The notes beneath the pieces are model-generated. The model was not told where the DNA came from and searched no databases. It saw only the letters and a program-made list of their open reading frames with translations. The position numbers and the translations under genes were made by a program. Below, one piece after another: positions 8,988 to 23,806 of a stretch of 64,000 nucleotides of DNA. The first letter of the stretch is position 1; the number at the start of each line of letters is the position of its first letter. This DNA is from an uncultured bacterium (lineage in GTDB: Bacteria > Auribacterota > Erginobacteria > Erginobacterales > Erginobacteraceae), in assembly GCA_964587835.1 (NCBI GenBank), contig CAZPMN010000001.1, forward strand, positions 22,232-86,231, given 5' to 3'.

Positions 8988-9086
8988 GACCGAAAAGTCG
9001 GACAGTTCCGATTGGTCCGGCTCATCAGACTCCCCCGTGCCGGTCCCGTGTTGCCGGCTCAACCAGATCAAGAAAGGAGAAAAACA

Positions 9087-10037
9087 ATGATCGTGTCAAC
9101 CAAGGAGCTCTTCGAGCACGCCTATGGCAACTACGCCCTGGGCGCCTACAACATCAACAACGCCGAGCAGATCATGGGGCTCTTCCAGGGGAATCTGGAC
9201 AGCTCGGCCCCCTTCATCATCCAGATTTCCAAGGGAGCCCGCTCCTACACCGACAAGCGGCTGCTGGAGGCGATGATTCGGGCGGCCGACGAGATCTTCC
9301 CCACCGCCATCTACGCCGTCCACCTCGATCACGGTGACGAGCAGGCCTGTATGGACTGCATCGAGAGCGGTTTCTACAGCTCGGTGATGATCGACGCCAG
9401 TTCGAAGGAGTTCGAGGAGAACATCGCCATCACCAGGCGGGTGGTGGAGGCGGCCCACGCCCGGGGGATTGCCGTGGAGGCCGAATTGGGTACCCTGGGC
9501 GGGGTCGAGGAGCACGTCTCGGTCTCCGAGGAGAACGCCAACCTCACCGATCCGAAGGAAGCCGAGGAATTCGTCAAGCAGACCGGCTGCGATAGTCTGG
9601 CCTGCGCCTTCGGGACCAGCCACGGGGCTTACAAGTTCTCCGGTTCCCAGGGGCTCCATTTCGAGATCATCAGGGGAATCCAGGAACGCCTTGCCGGGTT
9701 CCCGATCGTGATGCACGGCTCCAGCTCCGTTCCCCAGGACGAGGTGAAACGGATCAACGCCGCCGGGGGAGAGCTGAAAGGAGCCAAGGGGGTGGACGAG
9801 GATCAGATCAGCCAGGCGGCGAAGATGGGGGTGACCAAGGTCAACATCGACACCGACGGCCGCCTGGTCTGGTGCCGGGTCCACCGGGAGTACTTCCGGG
9901 ATCATCCCGAGGTCTTTGACCTCCGCAAGCCGGGCGAGGTTTTTATGGGAGAATATGCCAAGTACATCGCTCACAAGAACGAGGTCCTGGGCAGCGCCGG
10001 GCAGCTGGAGGAAGTGCGGAAGATCCTGAAGAAGTAG
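9087..10037 (+). CDS. fba: Class II fructose-1,6-bisphosphate aldolase
   Basis: HLDHG, SSVMIDAS, VEAELG, GTSHGAYK, HGSSSV, KVNIDTD; SD AAGGAG. Confidence 0.95.
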   Translation: MIVSTKELFEHAYGNYALGAYNINNAEQIMGLFQGNLDSSAPFIIQISKGARSYTDKRLLEAMIRAADEIFPTAIYAVHLDHGDEQACMDCIESGFYSSVMIDASSKEFEENIAITRRVVEAAHARGIAVEAELGTLGGVEEHVSVSEENANLTDPKEAEEFVKQTGCDSLACAFGTSHGAYKFSGSQGLHFEIIRGIQERLAGFPIVMHGSSSVPQDEVKRINAAGGELKGAKGVDEDQISQAAKMGVTKVNIDTDGRLVWCRVHREYFRDHPEVFDLRKPGEVFMGEYAKYIAHKNEVLGSAGQLEEVRKILKK

Positions 10038-11324: not shown

Positions 11325-12734
11325 ATGATCGAAATCACCTTTCTCGGCGGGGCTCGCTCGGTAACCGGATCCCGATTCCTGGTCCGCGCCGGCGGGGGGA
11401 CATTGCTGGTCGACTGCGGTCTCTTCCAGGAACGGGAGCTTCGCTCCCGGAACTGGGAGGATTTCCCCTTCCCCCCCCGTCAGATCGACGCGGTTGTCCT
11501 CACCCACGCCCACCTCGATCACTGCGGTTACCTCCCGAAACTGGTCCGGGAGGGTTTTGCCGGGGATATTTACTGTACTCCCCCGACGGCGGAAGTGGTG
11601 AAGATCGCCCTGCTTGACTCGGCCAAGATTCACCAGGAAGACGCTGCCTACAAGAAACGCCGCCACCAGAAAGAAGGTCGGCAGGGTCCTTACCCGGAGG
11701 TTCCCCTTTACACGGTCGCCGACGCCGAGGCGGTCTTCCCCCACCTCGTCACCGTCCCCTACCGGAAGGAGGTGGCCGTCTCTCCCCGGGTGAAGCTGAC
11801 CTTCCGAGATGCCGGTCATATCATCGGTTCCGCCCTGGCCGAACTGAAGATCAAAGACGAGGGGGATCCCCAAAGCCTTCTCTTCAGCGGGGATCTGGGC
11901 CGGAAACAGAACCCTCTGCTGGCCAGCCCCGAACCGGTGGAGGAGACTGATTTTCTCTTTCTGGAGTCAACTTACGGGGACCGGCTCCATGAGAGCGCCC
12001 CGGCCGCCCTCGACAAGCTCCGTTCCGTAATTGTGGAGACGGCCGAGCGCGGAGGAAAGGTGGTCATCCCCACCTTCGCCATCGAGCGGGCCCAGGAACT
12101 GCTTTATTTTATCAAGCAGCTTCTGGAGGCGGGAGATATCCCCGCCCTCGACTGTTTTATCGACAGTCCGATGGCGATCGATATCACCGGGATCTACAAC
12201 TCGTTCCCCGACTACCTCAACGGAGATAGCCGGAACCAGTTCTCCGGCGGAGGGTCACCGTTCTCCTTCCCGCTGTTAAATATGACCCGGGAGACGAAGG
12301 ATTCGATCGCCATCAACAGCCACCAGGGCCCGGCGATCATTATGGCGGGGTCGGGGATGTGTACCGGCGGCAGGATCAAGCATCACCTGGTCCAGCAGAT
12401 CTCCCGACCCGAGACGACCATCCTCTTCGTCGGCTACCAGGCACGGGGGACGCTGGGCCGGATCCTCCTGGAGCGACCGCAAAAGGTCCGGATCCTCGGA
12501 CAGGACCGCCTGATCCGGGCCCGGATCGAGCAGATCAACGGCTTTTCCGCCCACGCCGACCGCGACGAAATCGTCAACTGGCTGGGCCGGATAACCCGCG
12601 CTCCAAAACGAGTCTTCGTCGTCCACGGGGAGGAGAAATCCTCCCTGGCCCTGGCCGAAACCATCCAAAACCGTTTCGACTGGGAGACCGTCGTCCCCGC
12701 CTACCAGGAGATCCATATTTTACAGAACAGGTAA
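11325..12734 (+). CDS. MBL-fold beta-CASP ribonuclease
   Basis: DCGLFQ, THAHLDH, AGHIIGS, ESTYGDR, GFSAHAD. Confidence 0.9.
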   Translation: MIEITFLGGARSVTGSRFLVRAGGGTLLVDCGLFQERELRSRNWEDFPFPPRQIDAVVLTHAHLDHCGYLPKLVREGFAGDIYCTPPTAEVVKIALLDSAKIHQEDAAYKKRRHQKEGRQGPYPEVPLYTVADAEAVFPHLVTVPYRKEVAVSPRVKLTFRDAGHIIGSALAELKIKDEGDPQSLLFSGDLGRKQNPLLASPEPVEETDFLFLESTYGDRLHESAPAALDKLRSVIVETAERGGKVVIPTFAIERAQELLYFIKQLLEAGDIPALDCFIDSPMAIDITGIYNSFPDYLNGDSRNQFSGGGSPFSFPLLNMTRETKDSIAINSHQGPAIIMAGSGMCTGGRIKHHLVQQISRPETTILFVGYQARGTLGRILLERPQKVRILGQDRLIRARIEQINGFSAHADRDEIVNWLGRITRAPKRVFVVHGEEKSSLALAETIQNRFDWETVVPAYQEIHILQNR

Positions 12735-16757: not shown

Positions 16758-17707
16758 ACCGGGAACCGTCCCCTCAGGCAAAGTCGGCTTTCGACCGGGA
16801 ACTGGCCGCCGCCCTCAGCCCGCCCCATCCCTTCCTTGAATCATTTCGCCGTCAGACGCCGGTTGACGGTGGCAAGCGGCGCCGGGGGGAACTGATTCTG
16901 ATCCTGGGTCGCCTCTTCGCCGTGCCCGAGGCCCGCGCCGCCGCGGCCGCCGCCGCGGTGGAGGTGATCCATCTTGCCTCCTTGATTCACGACGATGTGG
17001 TCGACGGGGCCGTCCGGCGCCGGAGCCGCCCCACCCTGGAATCCCTCCAGGGAACCGGGCCCGCCCTGCTCTACGGTGATCTTCTCTTCAGCCGGGGGAT
17101 CGCGCTCGTCAACCGGCTCCGGGTCCCCGAGTTGACTGATCTCCTCCTCCAGACCGTCTCCGAGGTCTGCGCCGGCGAGATTCTGGAGACCCGGGAACGG
17201 GGAAGCTTCTCCTGGCCGGAAGAAACCTACCTTAAGATCATCGGGCTGAAGACCGCCTCCCTCTTCGATTACTGCGCCCGGGCCCCGGGGCTCCTGGCCG
17301 GGTTCTCTCTCCGGCGCCTGAATGTTTTGGGAAGTTTCGGCCGGAACCTCGGGCTGGCCTACCAGATTGTCGACGACTGTTTGGATTTCTCCCCCGGTCC
17401 CGACCGGCCGGATAAGATGCCCCTGGCCGATCTCCGTAACGGGGTGCCCAACCTCCCCCTCCTCTACGCGGCCCGCGATCTCCGGACGGGAAGAGAGCTG
17501 GGGGGATCCGATTTTTCCCCGCCGCGCCTGGAGCGTCTGGCGGCCCTGATCCGGGAGGGAGGGTTTGTCGACGCGGCCCGGGAGAAGGGTCGGGAATTCG
17601 AGCGCCAAGCCCGCCGGGAGGCGGAGGAGATCAGGAATTGGTTCCCGGCCGGTTCCTTCGCCCCTCTTGATGGGTACCTGAGAAGGTTGAACTCTCGGGG
17701 GGTTTGA
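16754..17707 (+). CDS. Long-chain polyprenyl diphosphate synthase
   Basis: LIHDDVVD and QIVDDCLD motifs, KTASLF; GTGA overlap with menA. Confidence 0.85.
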   Translation: MNREPSPQAKSAFDRELAAALSPPHPFLESFRRQTPVDGGKRRRGELILILGRLFAVPEARAAAAAAAVEVIHLASLIHDDVVDGAVRRRSRPTLESLQGTGPALLYGDLLFSRGIALVNRLRVPELTDLLLQTVSEVCAGEILETRERGSFSWPEETYLKIIGLKTASLFDYCARAPGLLAGFSLRRLNVLGSFGRNLGLAYQIVDDCLDFSPGPDRPDKMPLADLRNGVPNLPLLYAARDLRTGRELGGSDFSPPRLERLAALIREGGFVDAAREKGREFERQARREAEEIRNWFPAGSFAPLDGYLRRLNSRGV

Positions 17708-17742
17708 CTGGCCCAATCCCCTTCGGGGGAGTACTATCGTCC

Positions 17743-18909
17743 ATGATGAAGAAGAAACTGGTCATCGGCGGCGGCGGATTTGCCGGCGTGCGGCTGATCC
17801 GGTCCCTGGGGAGGGCGGGATCCCGTCTGGAGATCACCCTGGTTGATCCCCGCCCCGAGGCGGTCTTCTTACCCCTCCTCCCCGACGTGGTGGCGGGGAA
17901 GGTAAGCCTGGCAAGGCTGCTCTTTCCGCTGGAGGAGTTCTGCCGGAGGCGCGGTGTCGAGTTCGTCAACGCTTCGGCAGTCGGTCTCCCCGACCATCAT
18001 ACCCTCCTCCTCTCCGGGGGCCGCAGACTACCCTTTGACTTCCTGGTCCTGGCCTCCGGCGCCGCACCCGACTTCCACGGGAACCGGGCCGCCGGGGAGT
18101 TTGCCTTTACCCTGGCCGGAAAGGAAGACGCCTTGCGGCTTCGCCGTCGGCTGGGGGAGGTGACGGCCCGGGGATCCGGCCATACCTTCCTGGTGGTCGG
18201 CGGCGGTTATACCGGGGTGGAGACCGCGACCGCGGTGGTCTATGCCGGGCGTCGGGCCGCGTGCTCCGATTCTTCCCCCTTCCGGGTCCGGATCCTGGAG
18301 CTGGCCCCAAAGATTCTCGGCAATCTTCCGGAGGCGATCGCCGCCCCCGCCCGGCGGGAGGTCAGACGCCTGGGGATCGAGGTTTCGACTTCCGTCCGGA
18401 TCGGGGAGATCGGTCCCGGTCGGGTCGAGGTGGATGGGGAAGAGATCCGGGACTGTACCCTGATCTGGTCGGCGGGGATGAAGGCGGCCGACCTGGTCGG
18501 AAAGATGGAATTTCCCCGGGACGGGCAGGGGCGCCTGGAGGTGAAGGAGGATCTCACCCTGCCCGGTGCCGGAAATATCTTCGCCCTCGGCGACGCCGCC
18601 TGTTTCGTCTCCGGGGGGAGTCCGTTGCGGATGGCGGTTCAGTTCTCCTGGGCCCAGGGCGCGCTGACCGCCGCCAATATCCTCCGGCTTCTCAAGGACC
18701 GTCCCTGCCGTCCCTACCGTCCCCGCGATTACGGCTACCTGATCCCCTGCGCCTCGGGGAGAGCCTGGGGGCTCGTGCTCGGGGCCCGGGTATCCGGCCG
18801 CCTGGGCTCCTTGCTCCATTATCTGATCTGCGTCCTGCGGACTCTGAGCTGGAGGAACCGTCTCCTGCTGGCTTTGGAACTGGCGGGTCTGAAACGGACC
18901 CGGGATTGA
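17743..18909 (+). CDS. ndh: Type II NADH dehydrogenase-like FAD oxidoreductase
   Basis: GGGFAG and GGGYTGVE Rossmann motifs, IWSAG, FALGD. Confidence 0.75.
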   Translation: MMKKKLVIGGGGFAGVRLIRSLGRAGSRLEITLVDPRPEAVFLPLLPDVVAGKVSLARLLFPLEEFCRRRGVEFVNASAVGLPDHHTLLLSGGRRLPFDFLVLASGAAPDFHGNRAAGEFAFTLAGKEDALRLRRRLGEVTARGSGHTFLVVGGGYTGVETATAVVYAGRRAACSDSSPFRVRILELAPKILGNLPEAIAAPARREVRRLGIEVSTSVRIGEIGPGRVEVDGEEIRDCTLIWSAGMKAADLVGKMEFPRDGQGRLEVKEDLTLPGAGNIFALGDAACFVSGGSPLRMAVQFSWAQGALTAANILRLLKDRPCRPYRPRDYGYLIPCASGRAWGLVLGARVSGRLGSLLHYLICVLRTLSWRNRLLLALELAGLKRTRD

Positions 18910-18911
18910 CC

Positions 18912-18956
18912 GGTAGCACAGGCGGCTGGTGGCACAGGCGGCCCGCCTGTGCCACC
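18912..18956. repeat. Outlying REP: truncated copy plus perfect 29-bp palindrome
   Basis: GGTAGCACAGGCGGCT then GGTGGCACAGGCG-GCC-CGCCTGTGCCACC. Confidence 0.9.
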
Positions 18957-19044
18957 GATTGCAGGGGTTTATTGGGGATTTCAGATATGGGATCTGTAAG
19001 GAAACAGGCAATGGGAGTTCAACCGGTAAAGGAGGGAGGTTGTC

Positions 19045-19446
19045 ATGCTGAATAAAATATTCGGTCCGGCGGCGGCCTGGGGGCCGTTCTTTCTGCGGGT
19101 GGCGGTCGGGGTGATCTTCGTCGTCCACGGGGCCCAGAAGCTCTTTGGCGCCTTTGATGGTTCTGGGCTGGAGGGCTTCTCTCGGATGATCGCCGGCCTG
19201 GGCCTGCGACCGGCGATGGCCTGGGCTGCGGCGGTGGCCCTGATCGAGTTCGTCGGGGGGATCTTCCTGATCCTGGGGATGATGACTCGGCTGGCCGCCC
19301 TCCTGATCGCCGTGGTGATGGCGGTGGCGGTGATCTTCGTCCACCTTCCGCACGGTTTCTTCGACCTGGAGTTTCCCCTGGTCCTCTTCGCGGCCTCGCT
19401 CTGCCTTCTCCTGACCGGGGGCGGCCGGGCGATGCTGCGGGAATGA
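19045..19446 (+). CDS. DoxX family membrane protein
   Basis: LRVAVGVIFVVHGAQKLFG, EFVGG..LILG..TR. Confidence 0.9.
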   Translation: MLNKIFGPAAAWGPFFLRVAVGVIFVVHGAQKLFGAFDGSGLEGFSRMIAGLGLRPAMAWAAAVALIEFVGGIFLILGMMTRLAALLIAVVMAVAVIFVHLPHGFFDLEFPLVLFAASLCLLLTGGGRAMLRE

Positions 19447-20330
19447 GGATTAGCCGGGGCCGGGAATATTGCCGCCGGGCCGGGGGAGCATTCTGCATCT
19501 TATTGGCCCTCGGCCCCGCCGGGGCGGCGTTTCCGGAGGAAGGATACCGCCGGGTGGAGCTGGAACCCCGGGAGGAGGGAAGCTACCGGGCCCGCTTGCC
19601 GGAACGGGAGGAAGCCCGCTGGAGCGCCCGGTGGGTCCTGGAGAGGGTGGAGGAAGGGCCGCCGGCGGTCTATGCCGTCCGCGACGAGCTGGCGGGGGAG
19701 TTCGGGAGAAAAGACACCCTCCAGACCCGGGTGACCGAGGCCCGTTTCCTCCTCGAAGACGGCCGGATCCGGATGCTTCGAACCGTTCTCACCGTCCGCG
19801 AAGGAGCCGGAGAGATCGTCCGGGTCCTGGAGAAGGATTTCGACCACCGGCTCCGGACCGTCCGGACCGTCGATCTCGATCCCGCCGCCCAGCAAGTCCG
19901 GCGGCAGGAATTCAAGATGGGTGAGGTACTGGTCGACACCAAGGAGATCGTCTCGTACCTTCGGGGTTTCCCCTTTCCGGATTCGTCCGCAGCGGAAGCG
20001 AGTCTCGGCCGGCGGATCGAGTTCAAGCTTCTCAACGAGACCCCCGACACCTACTCGATCCGGGCCGAGTACCAGGGGATCGAGGAGGTGGAGACACCGG
20101 CGGGGACGTTCGCCTGCCATAAGCTGAGGCTGGTTCCCGACCTGGGCATCCTGACCTTTCTCGGCAAGTTGGTCGCCCCCGATCTCTATATGTGGTTTAC
20201 CGTCCACCCCCCGCATTTCTGGGTGAGATACGACGGCCTGGAGGGTGACTTAAAGACCCCCTCCGTCATCTCAGAACTGGTGGATTTCCAAACCTCCGGT
20301 AGCACAGGCGGCTCGCCTGTGATCTGGTAG
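19443..20330 (+). CDS. Secreted hypothetical protein (beta-rich, DUF3108-like)
   Basis: Signal peptide; E.VETPAGTFACHKL motif; ATGA overlap with doxX; stop provided by a REP. Confidence 0.6.
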   Translation: MRISRGREYCRRAGGAFCILLALGPAGAAFPEEGYRRVELEPREEGSYRARLPEREEARWSARWVLERVEEGPPAVYAVRDELAGEFGRKDTLQTRVTEARFLLEDGRIRMLRTVLTVREGAGEIVRVLEKDFDHRLRTVRTVDLDPAAQQVRRQEFKMGEVLVDTKEIVSYLRGFPFPDSSAAEASLGRRIEFKLLNETPDTYSIRAEYQGIEEVETPAGTFACHKLRLVPDLGILTFLGKLVAPDLYMWFTVHPPHFWVRYDGLEGDLKTPSVISELVDFQTSGSTGGSPVIW

Positions 20331-20617
20331 CACAGGCGGCCCGCCTGTGAAGCCGCCAGGCAAATAGGCATTTCGCCCAGGCCGGCGGCCTGGGCCACCA
20401 ATTGCAGGGGGGGGGAGCACAGGCGGTCCGCCTGTGCGAAAAGCTTGGTTGCCTGGTCCTCAACAGGCGAGCCGCCTGTGCTACCGCCATTTTTTCCCTT
20501 TTGCGCACAGGCGAGCCGCCTGTGCTACCGCCATTTTCTCCCTTTTGCGCACAGGCGAGCCGCCTGTGCTACCGCCATTTTTTCCCTTTTGCGCACAGGC
20601 GAGCCGCCTATGCTACC
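20298..20617. repeat. REP cluster downstream of RAYT: 3 forward and 4 reverse copies, the latter as a 44-bp tandem array
   Basis: Consensus GGTAGCACAGGCG-GCT-CGCCTGTG at 20298, 20326, about 20416; reverse copies ending 20485, 20529, 20573, 20617. Confidence 0.95.
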
Positions 20618-20633
20618 GCTACCGCCGGTCGAT

Positions 20634-21128
20634 TTACGGGGAGGCGGGGTCGGCCTGGAAGGCGTTTGGGTTGTGGTGCCACCAGGGGTAGTCCTGCGCG
20701 CTGTTAACCATCCCCGATTTTACCGGGTTGTTATGCATATAATTCAATTTTGCCTGAAATTCGTCCGCGTTCCGGATTATCCGGTCAAAACGTTCATCCT
20801 GCCAGAATTGCCCCGACCGGTTCATTAATTTGTTGATTTTATGCGCCGTGAAGCTTTTGTTGGTGTGCATGATTTCTTTAAGAGAAAAGCAGGTGCCGTC
20901 TTTTTTTCTCGTCGGGGTGATCAAGGCGTGGACGTGGTTGTTCATAACGACAATTGCGTGCAGCAGGTAGCGCTTCCCGTGCCAGAATTTCCAGTTATCC
21001 ATAACTATGGTTCGGGCCGCTGGGGATAGTGCTGCTCCTGTCACACAACGGTAGGTGATGAAATATGTGCAGCCATCCATCTCCCAGTGAGGGAGGTTCC
21101 GGCGGGTGATGGAAATTTTTTCTTTCAT
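20634..21128 (-). mobile_element. rayT: REP-associated tyrosine transposase (RAYT, HUH Y1), 164 aa
   Basis: RRNLPHW, TYFITYR, HUH motif NHVHAL, FWQDERFDRIIR, YMHNNPVK; AT-richer than flanks; REPs on both sides. Confidence 0.92.
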
Positions 21129-21144
21129 AGGGTGATATGCATCC

Positions 21145-21375
21145 CACAGGCGGGCCGCCTGTGCCACCGCCTGTGCCACCGCCTGTGCCACCCCTGGAAT
21201 TGGTGGCACAGGCCGCCGGCCTGTGCGGCACACCAGGCAACCAGGCATCCCCGCAGGCGGGCCGCCTGTGCCACCCCTGGAATTGGTGGCACAGGCCGCT
21301 GGCCTGTGCGGAACACCAGGCTACCAGCACACCAGGCAACCAGGCCTTCCCCACAGGCGGGCCGCCTGCGCTACC
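21145..21375. repeat. REP/REPIN cluster upstream of RAYT
   Basis: REP copies at 21145, 21202, 21252, 21285, 21352; inverted pairs spaced by CCTGGAATT repeated with 83-bp period; 12-bp partial duplications 21169-21192. Confidence 0.93.
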
Positions 21376-22504
21376 GTTCGCCCTCCAGGTCGAGCTTGAC
21401 CGAGAGGAAGCCGAGGAGATCCTTGAGGGTGATGATCCCGGCCAGGCGGCCGTCATCCACAACCAGCAGCCGGCCGTTTCCGGTACGGGTCATCAGACCC
21501 AGGGCGGTAACCGCTTCGGCATCGGGGCTGATGCTGTTCTCCTGCGAACAGGAAGAGGCCAGCTCGCCGACGCGACGGGTCGACCATTGCTCCCGGGGCG
21601 TCTCCTTGACCTGCTTAGTGGTGACGCACCCGGCCAATCGCCCGTTCTCGATCACCGGATACATCTTGAAGTGGTGGCGGTAGACATAGTCGTTGACCAG
21701 TTCTTCCACGGTCGCTTCGGCCGGGACGGTGACCGGCCGTTCGTTCATGAACCTGGCTACCTGCTCACCCTCCAGGGTCTTGCGGATCACCACCTGACGG
21801 TAGGAGGTCTGGGCGGCGGATCTGAGAAAGAGGCCGATCAGGAACCACCAGACCCCGCCGATGAAGTTGCCGGTAATGAAGGTGACCGCCCCGAGGATGA
21901 TCAGGATCGATCCGAACCCGGAGCCGATCCGGGAGGAGATCCGGGTTGCTCTCCGGAGGCTGCCCTGGCCGCGCCAGAGGAGGGCGCGAAGGATTCTCCC
22001 TCCGTCGAGAGGAAAGGCGGGAAGGAGGTTGAATCCGGCCAGGATGAAGTTGATGAAGGCCAGGTAACTGATCACGCCGATAACCGGAACCGGCCACCCG
22101 CCGGCTCGTCCGCCCGCCCGGACCAGGAGGAAGAAGCAGCCGAGGGCGATACTGGCGGCCGGCCCGGCCGCCGCCATCTGCAGTTCGGTCTGCGGGCTGG
22201 TCGGCTCCTCCTCCATCTGGGCCACCCCTCCGAAGATGAACAGGGTGATGCCTTTGATCGGGAGCCCCCGCCGGCGGGCGACCAGCGAGTGGGAAAGTTC
22301 ATGGAGGATGATCGCCAGGAAGAGGCCCAGAGTACCCGCCACCCCCATCCACCAGTAGGCGGAGGTGGAGAGGTCGCCGTAGTAGGCGGGGAAGAGGCCC
22401 CGGGCCAGCGACCAGGTGATCAGGACGGCCAGAATCAGCCAGCTGGGATCGACCTTGACCTCGAAACCGAACAGACGAAATATACGGATGCTCTTCTGAA
22501 ACAT
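21371..22504 (-). CDS. Site-2 (M50) metalloprotease with tandem CBS domains
   Basis: HELSH, FNLLPAFPLDGG, two CBS repeats; SD GGAGG. Confidence 0.92.
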   Translation of the reverse strand: MFQKSIRIFRLFGFEVKVDPSWLILAVLITWSLARGLFPAYYGDLSTSAYWWMGVAGTLGLFLAIILHELSHSLVARRRGLPIKGITLFIFGGVAQMEEEPTSPQTELQMAAAGPAASIALGCFFLLVRAGGRAGGWPVPVIGVISYLAFINFILAGFNLLPAFPLDGGRILRALLWRGQGSLRRATRISSRIGSGFGSILIILGAVTFITGNFIGGVWWFLIGLFLRSAAQTSYRQVVIRKTLEGEQVARFMNERPVTVPAEATVEELVNDYVYRHHFKMYPVIENGRLAGCVTTKQVKETPREQWSTRRVGELASSCSQENSISPDAEAVTALGLMTRTGNGRLLVVDDGRLAGIITLKDLLGFLSVKLDLEGER

Positions 22505-22650
22505 CGGCAACCTCCTGCGGGGAATATTTTCCGGAAAAAATCTTCCGATTCTGTTAATATCTCAGGCAGCTTAAAGCCGCCTGGCGGATATCCTAACATC
22601 CCGGGCGGTAAAAATACAGCAATCTGACCACCAGTCCGGGGACAGCGCCT

Positions 22651-23732: not shown

Positions 23733-23806
23733 GCGCCCGTAGCTCAGATGGATAGAGCGCTTGCCTCCGGAGCAAGAGGTCGCGCGTTCGAATCGCGCCG
23801 GGCGTA
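23733..23806 (+). tRNA. tRNA-Arg (anticodon CCG), CCA not encoded
   Basis: GCGCCCG/CGGGCGT acceptor, TAGCTCAG-TGGATAGAGC D-arm, CTTGC-CTCCGGA-GCAAG, GTTCGAATC T-loop. Confidence 0.95.

Follow-up and report, generated by a model that had tools for sequence, protein, structure and literature searches.

A stretch of 64,000 nucleotides from an uncultured bacterium (referred to below as the window) very probably harbors a REPtron, namely a chromosomal, vertically inherited, single-copy gene for a REP-associated tyrosine transposase (RAYT) amid clusters of its cognate repetitive extragenic palindromes (REPs). An earlier note on this DNA had claimed an intact RAYT of 164 aa with about 13 REP copies at positions 18912-21375, some of them as inverted pairs of the REPIN type (REP doublets forming hairpins), and with outlying copies 1.4 kb off after ndh. 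Coordinates, copy number, inverted pairs and outlying copies were all correct, and the RAYT assignment was borne out by a score above the cut-off of the NCBIfam profile NF047646 and by E. coli TnpA-REP (4ER8) as the best match in both sequence and fold.

At the level of sequence and predicted fold, the 164-aa open reading frame (ORF) was confirmed as an intact RAYT, an HUH/Y1 nuclease acting on single strands and belonging to class 2 TnpAY1, and not an IS200 TnpA. The NF047646 profile (REP_Tyr_transpos) gave 94.7 bits against a cut-off of 80, with profile positions 4-146 of 146 covered, while the IS200 model NF033573 gave 14.8 bits against a cut-off of 55 and Pfam Y1_Tnp matched weakly at 22 bits, just below its 23-bit cut-off. 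The sole PDB sequence match of the protein was E. coli TnpA-REP. When the AlphaFold (AF2) model (pLDDT 87.4) was submitted to Foldseek, 4ER8 again came top (E 2e-8, TM 0.69), followed by the IS200, IS608 and ISDra2 transposases with TM values of 0.45-0.52.

The catalytic motifs agree with this assignment. Both histidines of the HUH motif, H65-V66-H67, are conserved without exception among 17 homologues and correspond to those of the HMH in 4ER8. The catalytic tyrosine lies in Y130-M-H-N-N134-P135, in which Y130 and N134 are the counterparts of Y115 and N119 in the E. coli enzyme. Invariant columns of the 17-homologue alignment were N11-L-P-H-W15 (the N-terminal NLPHW motif), Y22, F23, T25, H65, H67, K91, E112, R119, Y130, N134 and P135. 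Moreover, W109, Q110, D115, R116 and R119 align to the residues W94, Q95, E100, H101 and R104 of the E. coli enzyme that contact the GTAG foot, and these positions are invariant or nearly so across the same homologues; the residue numbering agrees with that of Quentin et al. 2018 (PMC6006769). According to that study, Y-x-x-x-N-P is the signature of class 2 (TnpA-REP), IS200 having Y-x-x-x-Q, and replacements of E by D and of H by R at foot-contact positions are known for subclasses 2.5 and 2.7. Because the protein has N-H-V-H (D-H-V-H in its relatives), W-Q, Y-[IM]-x-N-N-P and the changes of E100 to D and H101 to R at GTAG-contact positions, as do the REPtrons of subclasses 2.4 (Bertels Group 4) and 2.7 (PMC6006769), it appears closest to subclass 2.4 or 2.7, as assigned by motifs alone. 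The family as a whole comprises 9,854 representative clusters at E <= 1e-3, with 71 of them at 1e-30 or better. Many close representatives (P0137, P0139, P0146, P0157, P0169 and others) sit inside predicted proteins of 400-1340 aa, which are either real fusions or ORFs over-called across GC-rich REP arrays.

The HUH/Y1 fold and the weak Y1_Tnp match would also suit an autonomous insertion sequence of the IS200/IS605 type whose ends are palindromic by chance. Such elements, as represented by IS608 and ISDra2, resemble the present system in this fold and, by analogy, in the recognition of single-stranded DNA (ssDNA) hairpins with a 5' guide tetranucleotide, but they carry Y-x-x-x-Q, occur in multiple copies, have a left end that differs from the right one and often contain tnpB. 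Here, the IS200 profile stays far from its threshold, the tyrosine motif is Y-x-x-x-N-P (PMC6006769), the window contains one RAYT copy, no tnpB or other transposition gene adjoins it, one REP family lies on both sides and the position is syntenic across relatives. An IS200/IS605 element is therefore effectively refuted, and we consider it extremely improbable.

The repeats around the gene are far above chance. The palindrome GCACAGGCGnnnCGCCTGTG (with up to 2 mismatches) was found at 13 sites of the window, all within 18932-21371, and at none in 100 dinucleotide-preserving shuffles; likewise, the foot plus half-stem GGTRGCACAGGC occurred 18 times against 0.31 expected. Twelve REP copies flank the RAYT gene within 300 bp on either side, and a degenerate copy as well as the 12-bp half-REPs come on top of the 13 palindromes (Table 1). 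No second repeated palindrome family was found in the window.

Each REP consists of a perfect 9-bp stem, a 3-nt loop and a GT(A/G)G foot on the 5' side, and two subtypes can be told apart. Subtype A has GT(A/G)G, the stem CACAGGCG, a 3-nt GSY loop and then CGCCTGTG, while subtype B has (CCYTGSAATT)GGTGG, the stem CACAGGCC, a GCY loop and then GGCCTGTG, its AATT-GGTGG lead being conserved. The subtypes alternate, both inverted and in tandem, as in the bacterial interspersed mosaic elements (BIMEs) of E. coli. Read along the gene strand, two units of A facing B, three 12-bp half-REPs and one A copy precede RAYT, and four tandem A copies follow it. Past this array come an inverted A, the degenerate B and two inverted A copies, and 1.4 kb beyond lie the double-foot A copy and its adjoining truncated copy. 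Each unit of the 44-bp array is made of one A-type REP and a T-rich linker and is oriented like the RAYT gene, giving the four A copies. Copies of the 83-bp unit of B (+) facing A (-) number two in the window, five in L292 and about four in L296.

As ssDNA, the REPs are predicted to form hairpins of 9-13 bp with dG values of -11 to -17 kcal/mol. The description of inverted pairs as REPIN-like also stood, since three pairs (20413/20462, 21202/21252 and 21285/21352) fold into long ssDNA hairpins, the first two of them end to end with dG values of -27.8 and -27.6 kcal/mol.

Table 1. Features of the REPtron locus and its surroundings (window coordinates unless stated otherwise).
Feature	Position	Strand	Remarks
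NDH-2 gene	17704-18909	+	precedes outlying REPs
Truncated A copy	18912-18927		directly after NDH-2 stop
Double-foot A copy, GGTGG-CACAGGCGGCCCGCCTGTG-CCACC	18928-18956		ssDNA hairpin, dG -17.2 kcal/mol
DoxX gene	19045-19446	+	
DUF3108-like gene	19443-20330	+	
Two direct A-type REPs	20298-20321, 20326-20349	+	
Degenerate B-type REP	20376-20399	-	
Inverted A/A pair, REPIN-like	20413-20436 / 20462-20485	+ (GGGAG foot) / -	dG -27.8 kcal/mol, z -5.3
44-bp tandem array	20463-20619	-	3.6 units, 97% identity; directly 3' of RAYT gene
RAYT (TnpA-REP) gene, 164 aa	20634-21128	-	ATG 21126-21128, TAA 20634-20636
A-type REP directly 5' of RAYT start	21145-21168	-	17 nt upstream of ATG
12-bp repeats, foot + 5' half-stem (GGTGGCACAGGC)	21155-21196	-	3 copies, before 5' A-type REP
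Two BIME-like units	21199-21375		83-bp period, B-type (+) facing A-type (-)
B-type REPs of BIME-like units	21202-21225, 21285-21308	+	
A-type REPs of BIME-like units	21252-21275, 21352-21375	-	
M50/CBS peptidase gene	21371-22510	-	
tRNA gene	23733-23806	+	sole Rfam match in window at gathering threshold
Partial REP duplications, window	18912-18942, 21155-21196, 20617-20626		
Partial REP duplications, L122	4898-4939, 5689-5730		

Partial REP duplications (a foot with part of a hairpin, at periods of 12, 16 or 19 nt) lie beside full copies both in the window and in the related locus L122, with junctions at varying points of the REP hairpin. They may come from slippage across hairpins or may be traces left by cleavage and joining reactions that were aborted.

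The REP copies at 18932 and 20298-20485 are also present in a short-read contig assembled independently from the same organism (Logan SRR8186049, L535), which ends within the tandem REP array. Therefore, the repeats are real and not an assembly artefact of the window. The exact 164-aa protein had no match in public assemblies.

Between the NDH-2 and M50/CBS genes lie three genes, namely DoxX, the DUF3108-like gene and the 164-aa RAYT ORF. An orthologous RAYT (P0003) of 78-80% identity, on contigs as long as 432 kb, shares its gene neighbourhood with the window, the common order being M50-CBS, RAYT, DUF3108-like, DoxX, NDH-2, polyprenyl synthase and UbiA. Compared with this orthologue, the RAYT gene gave a ratio of nonsynonymous to synonymous substitution rates (dN/dS) of 0.27 with a dN of 0.10, and seven neighbour genes gave dN/dS values of 0.14-0.32 and dN values of 0.10-0.25. 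Given the conserved synteny with an orthologue of 80% identity and a dN/dS like that of the neighbours, the gene is vertically inherited and under purifying selection.

Base composition could suggest a different history, in which a REP-RAYT-REP unit arrived recently as a horizontal island from a donor of lower GC content. The RAYT gene has 50.5% GC, whereas the window has 62.5% and the flanks of the gene have 64-66%, and the nearest RAYTs outside the lineage belong to Binatia and Schekmanbacteria (55-56% identity) rather than to other PVC members (41%). Nevertheless, a recent arrival seems quite improbable. Since an orthologue with 80% amino acid identity occupies the same position, with a dS of 0.39 for RAYT against 0.5-0.8 in neighbouring genes, any acquisition would be older than the split of the two lineages. 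In addition, every clade member checked had a RAYT gene of lower GC content than its host locus (0.505/0.625 here, and 0.53/0.66, 0.52/0.66, 0.38/0.63 and 0.49/0.58 among L060, L122, L510 and L512). Thus, low GC is a trait of the family and not a sign of recent arrival. It should be pointed out that the low GC of RAYT persists even where synteny indicates long residence; repeated transfer, selection for low expression and avoidance of REP-like structure are possible reasons.

The elongation factor EF-G encoded in the window is 83% and 81% identical to that of two metagenome-assembled genomes (MAGs), "PVC group bacterium AnMBR.bin469" and "uncultured bacterium binchicken_co88_438", respectively, others reaching about 70% or less. 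Alternating A/B arrays were found in three MAGs, namely binchicken_co88_438, "PVC group bacterium CSSed11_89" and Ca. Erginobacter occultus (Ca. Auribacterota). Judged by these EF-G identities and by the arrays common to those MAGs, the host is an uncultured, poorly studied PVC-group lineage in or near Auribacterota, in line with the poorly studied lineage proposed before.

By homology to the TnpA-REP enzymes of E. coli, Stenotrophomonas and Marinomonas, the RAYT of this REPtron would bind the folded REP hairpin on ssDNA, its residues W109, Q110, D115, R116 and R119 reading the foot. Y130, together with a metal held by H65/H67, would cleave beside the REP, and the strands would then be rejoined. 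Over evolutionary time, such cleavage and rejoining could seed, remove and rearrange REPs. The REPIN-like pairs and the BIME-like tandem arrays are made up of alternating A and B copies. For much of the growth of the arrays in the window, replication slippage is the simpler explanation.

Evidence for dispersal and turnover of the repeats comes from related genomes, in which the counts from scans of the collections with REP patterns are lower bounds. The related MAGs PWXJ01, JAVCCZ01 and CAYXKT01 have arrays on several contigs and at further loci. In CSSed11_89, arrays lie on at least 6 contigs, 4 of them unrelated to the RAYT region, and a REP cluster separates polyprenyl synthase from NDH-2, two genes that overlap in the window. 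Ca. Erginobacter and binchicken_co88_438 have arrays beside the orthologue of ORF 9012-10037, at which the window shows a plain terminator-like hairpin and no REP array. REP numbers differ at all 3 orthologous intergenic sites among the window, L122 and CSSed11_89; the DoxX/NDH-2 site, for example, has 1.5, 4 and 7 copies, respectively. As copy numbers differ and arrays occupy sites of relatives that are empty in the window, these comparisons indicate that REPs are gained and lost within the lineage. A double-foot singleton also fills the 36-bp gap between two convergent genes on contigs from two sister samples, one of them the metagenome that holds the closest orthologue (contig GC 0.65); it is not established that these contigs belong to the organism of that orthologue.

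Several observations weigh against a dispersing REPtron in the source organism itself. Neither the 61.5 kb of the window outside 18912-21375 nor a further 3.7 kb past its left edge contained a REP; beyond the window, same-organism sequence consisted of Logan contigs of 2.5-4.7 kb reached via neighbouring genes. Genome-wide dispersal in this organism is thus unproven. Copy identity is no proof of recent activity, because the same 24-mer spans phyla. Furthermore, the head-to-tail arrays, which have periods of 12, 16, 44 and 83 bp, agree with slippage no less than with enzyme action. Activity or recent activity of the system is not shown by this DNA: within the window and the 3.7 kb next to it, the copies are confined to the locus, an outcome that the earlier note had named as a refutation, and arrays at other loci belong to relatives.

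The same observations could point to a quiescent or local-only REPtron, in which RAYT is kept for a host function, REPs are essentially confined to the surroundings of the gene, and arrays change by slippage and recombination rather than by RAYT-driven transposition. The absence of REPs from the 61.5 kb and 3.7 kb outside the locus, the head-to-tail periods and the differing positions of the half-REP junctions are in its favor, as is the report that the 16-mers flanking Group 4 RAYTs are not abundant, with about 14 per replicon (Bertels et al. 2017, PMC5581495). However, related MAGs hold A/B arrays on at least 6 contigs, some at loci unrelated to RAYT, and both the double-foot singleton from the metagenome of the closest orthologue (with the above caveat on the organism) and the purifying selection on RAYT argue the other way. 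We therefore treat local confinement as a genuine candidate, albeit a somewhat doubtful one.

The REPtron of the window shares its REP design with relatives in other phyla. The exact 24-mer GGTRGCACAGGCGnnnCGCCTGTG was found on at least 120 stretches in GTDB representative genomes; the matches listed include MAGs of Phycisphaerae, Desulfobaccales, Chloroflexota, Verrucomicrobiota and Acidobacteriota, and among them the 24-mer often occurred on 3-4 contigs per MAG or at distant sites of one 6-Mb scaffold. Relatives whose RAYT is flanked by REPs of the same design came from Ca. Schekmanbacteria (56% identity), a Ca. Binatia MAG (55%), GCA_040960995.1 (47%) and Phycisphaerae (41%). Their design reads GGTGG-CACAG(G/C)C...G(C/G)CTGTG, then the gene, then hairpin-CCACC, and this arrangement of foot-hairpin, gene and hairpin-foot was found again around the relatives of 47-56% identity. 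Among the REPs of RAYT relatives, foot and stem base are constant, and the upper stem and loop alone vary. REP-encoded peptides (G-T-G-x-x-P-V) were seen at the called termini of 18 of the 33 closest database homologues. GTDB species representatives contained no RAYT above 41% identity, and plasmid records contained only relatives of at most 36% identity.

Two claims of the earlier note need correction in this light. The repeats are not the RAYT's own REP family, as the same foot and stem base flank 41-56%-identity relatives in other phyla and the 24-mer occurs in many MAGs. Nor is the mixture of GTAG and GTGG feet a novelty, since the canonical foot had already been published as GT[AG]G (PMC6006769) and families dominated by GTGG are known (PMC3733652).

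The clade, taken down to about 40% identity and covering at least 5 or 6 phyla, keeps both GT[AG]G-CACAGGC...GCCTGTG and an AT-rich RAYT. One explanation, which we put forward only tentatively and regard as doubtful, is that a REP-RAYT-REP package moves between phyla over long time-scales and yet is a fixed, selected chromosomal gene within lineages. If true, the view of RAYTs as strictly vertical and domesticated would need qualifying. Alternatively, the protein-DNA recognition code may be unusually rigid and have been frozen since before the phyla split. The cross-phylum constancy of the REP design and the persistently AT-rich RAYT genes are together the single lead that deserves to be followed.

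A B-type probe was also considered as a lineage marker and was rejected. Its strict version, the 23-mer GTGGCACAGGCCGCTGGCCTGTG, is abundant in soil metagenomes, where very common singletons lie on contigs with GC 0.58-0.61 (L389-L508), and one Ca. Binatia MAG (JBGPOI01, L284-L359), which encodes the 55%-identical RAYT, also has it on at least 11 of its contigs. This Binatia B-type system is a much more dispersed sister system. The degenerate probe additionally matches chance GC-rich palindromes in Actinobacteria, and the lineage is marked only by alternating A/B arrays. Among IMG/VR loci (L514-L533), 20 viral-contig stretches of GC 0.58-0.70 carried the REP 24-mer and none of the 20 a RAYT relative; these stretches may belong to prophages or derive from hosts.

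All features of the locus fit published descriptions of RAYT/REP systems, of which it is an ordinary class 2 member. GTAG-tagged REPs were reported earlier in the PVC superphylum, Chloroflexi and Cyanobacteria, and in Opitutus terrae most elements of one family have GTGG instead of GTAG (Di Nocera et al. 2013, PMC3733652). The present REP stem was not found in the supplements of that paper, the consensus sequences of its Figure 1 (GTAG-1 to GTAG-24) being outside the comparison. Quentin et al. (PMC6006769) defined canonical REPs by the GT[AG]G foot, described double-foot REPs and several REP subfamilies per REPtron, and ascribed the patchy distribution of REPtrons to horizontal transfer and loss. 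Subclass 2.4/2.7 REPtrons of that study resemble the present one in their long canonical palindromes with a GT[AG]G foot, double-foot copies, a low-copy gene and a family scattered across many non-proteobacterial phyla. In many members of subclass 2.4, however, a REP is inserted inside the gene, and none lies inside the RAYT gene here. The sample of that study did not include the present host phylum (related to Ca. Auribacterota).

The REPtrons of Stenotrophomonas maltophilia and Marinomonas sp. MWYL1 have similarly short perfect hairpins with a GTAG foot, and Corneloup et al. 2021 (PMC8266576) showed for RAYTs of such perfect-palindrome REPs that foot changes are tolerated and that the bases of the loop matter. 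Both properties fit the GTAG/GTGG mixture of the window and the differences between its subtypes in upper stem and loop. Unlike the present system, these REPtrons belong to subclass 2.5 (Group 3) of Gammaproteobacteria and have very abundant REPs; they are known by biochemistry, whereas the RAYT clade described here is known from sequence alone.

The E. coli K-12 REPtron (TnpA-REP/YafM with Y and Z REPs and BIMEs) is alike in that inverted two-subtype pairs flank the gene, mosaic arrays are in tandem and the foot lies directly 5' of the stem. The two proteins share 19% identity in the structural alignment, and the E. coli REPs are longer, imperfect and bulged, in contrast to the perfect 9-bp stems and 3-nt loops here. 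E. coli has several hundred dispersed REPs, against none outside the locus in the 61.5 kb of the window.

Current understanding of how RAYT/REP systems work is unchanged by this locus. It adds an uncultured lineage of the PVC group, related to Ca. Auribacterota, to their range and offers a compact, well-resolved REPtron outside Proteobacteria that combines two REP subtypes with double-foot copies and BIME-like arrays. Because one REP design spans phyla and close relatives have orthologous sites with and without arrays, the clade is a reasonable test case for the co-evolution of RAYT specificity with REP sequence and for the horizontal spread of REPtrons.

Two host genes end within REPs. The M50/CBS gene ends in ...GER-TAG, its last codon and TAG coming from the GGTAG foot at 21371-21375. 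The DUF3108-like ORF runs through the first of its two direct REPs and takes its TAG stop from the foot of the next one, so that its last 11 codons (20298-20330, ...GSTGGSPVIW) are encoded by REPs. Owing to a 1-nt frame difference, its orthologue in L122 stops 9 codons sooner, at the first foot. Promoter and terminator scans gave nothing over background. Elsewhere in the window, the top NCBIfam match of a beta-CASP/MBL ribonuclease (11325-12734, + strand) was "type VII CRISPR-associated Cas14", at 407 bits against an 800-bit cut-off. As this score is far under the cut-off, the ORF is probably a generic RNase J/CPSF-like enzyme.

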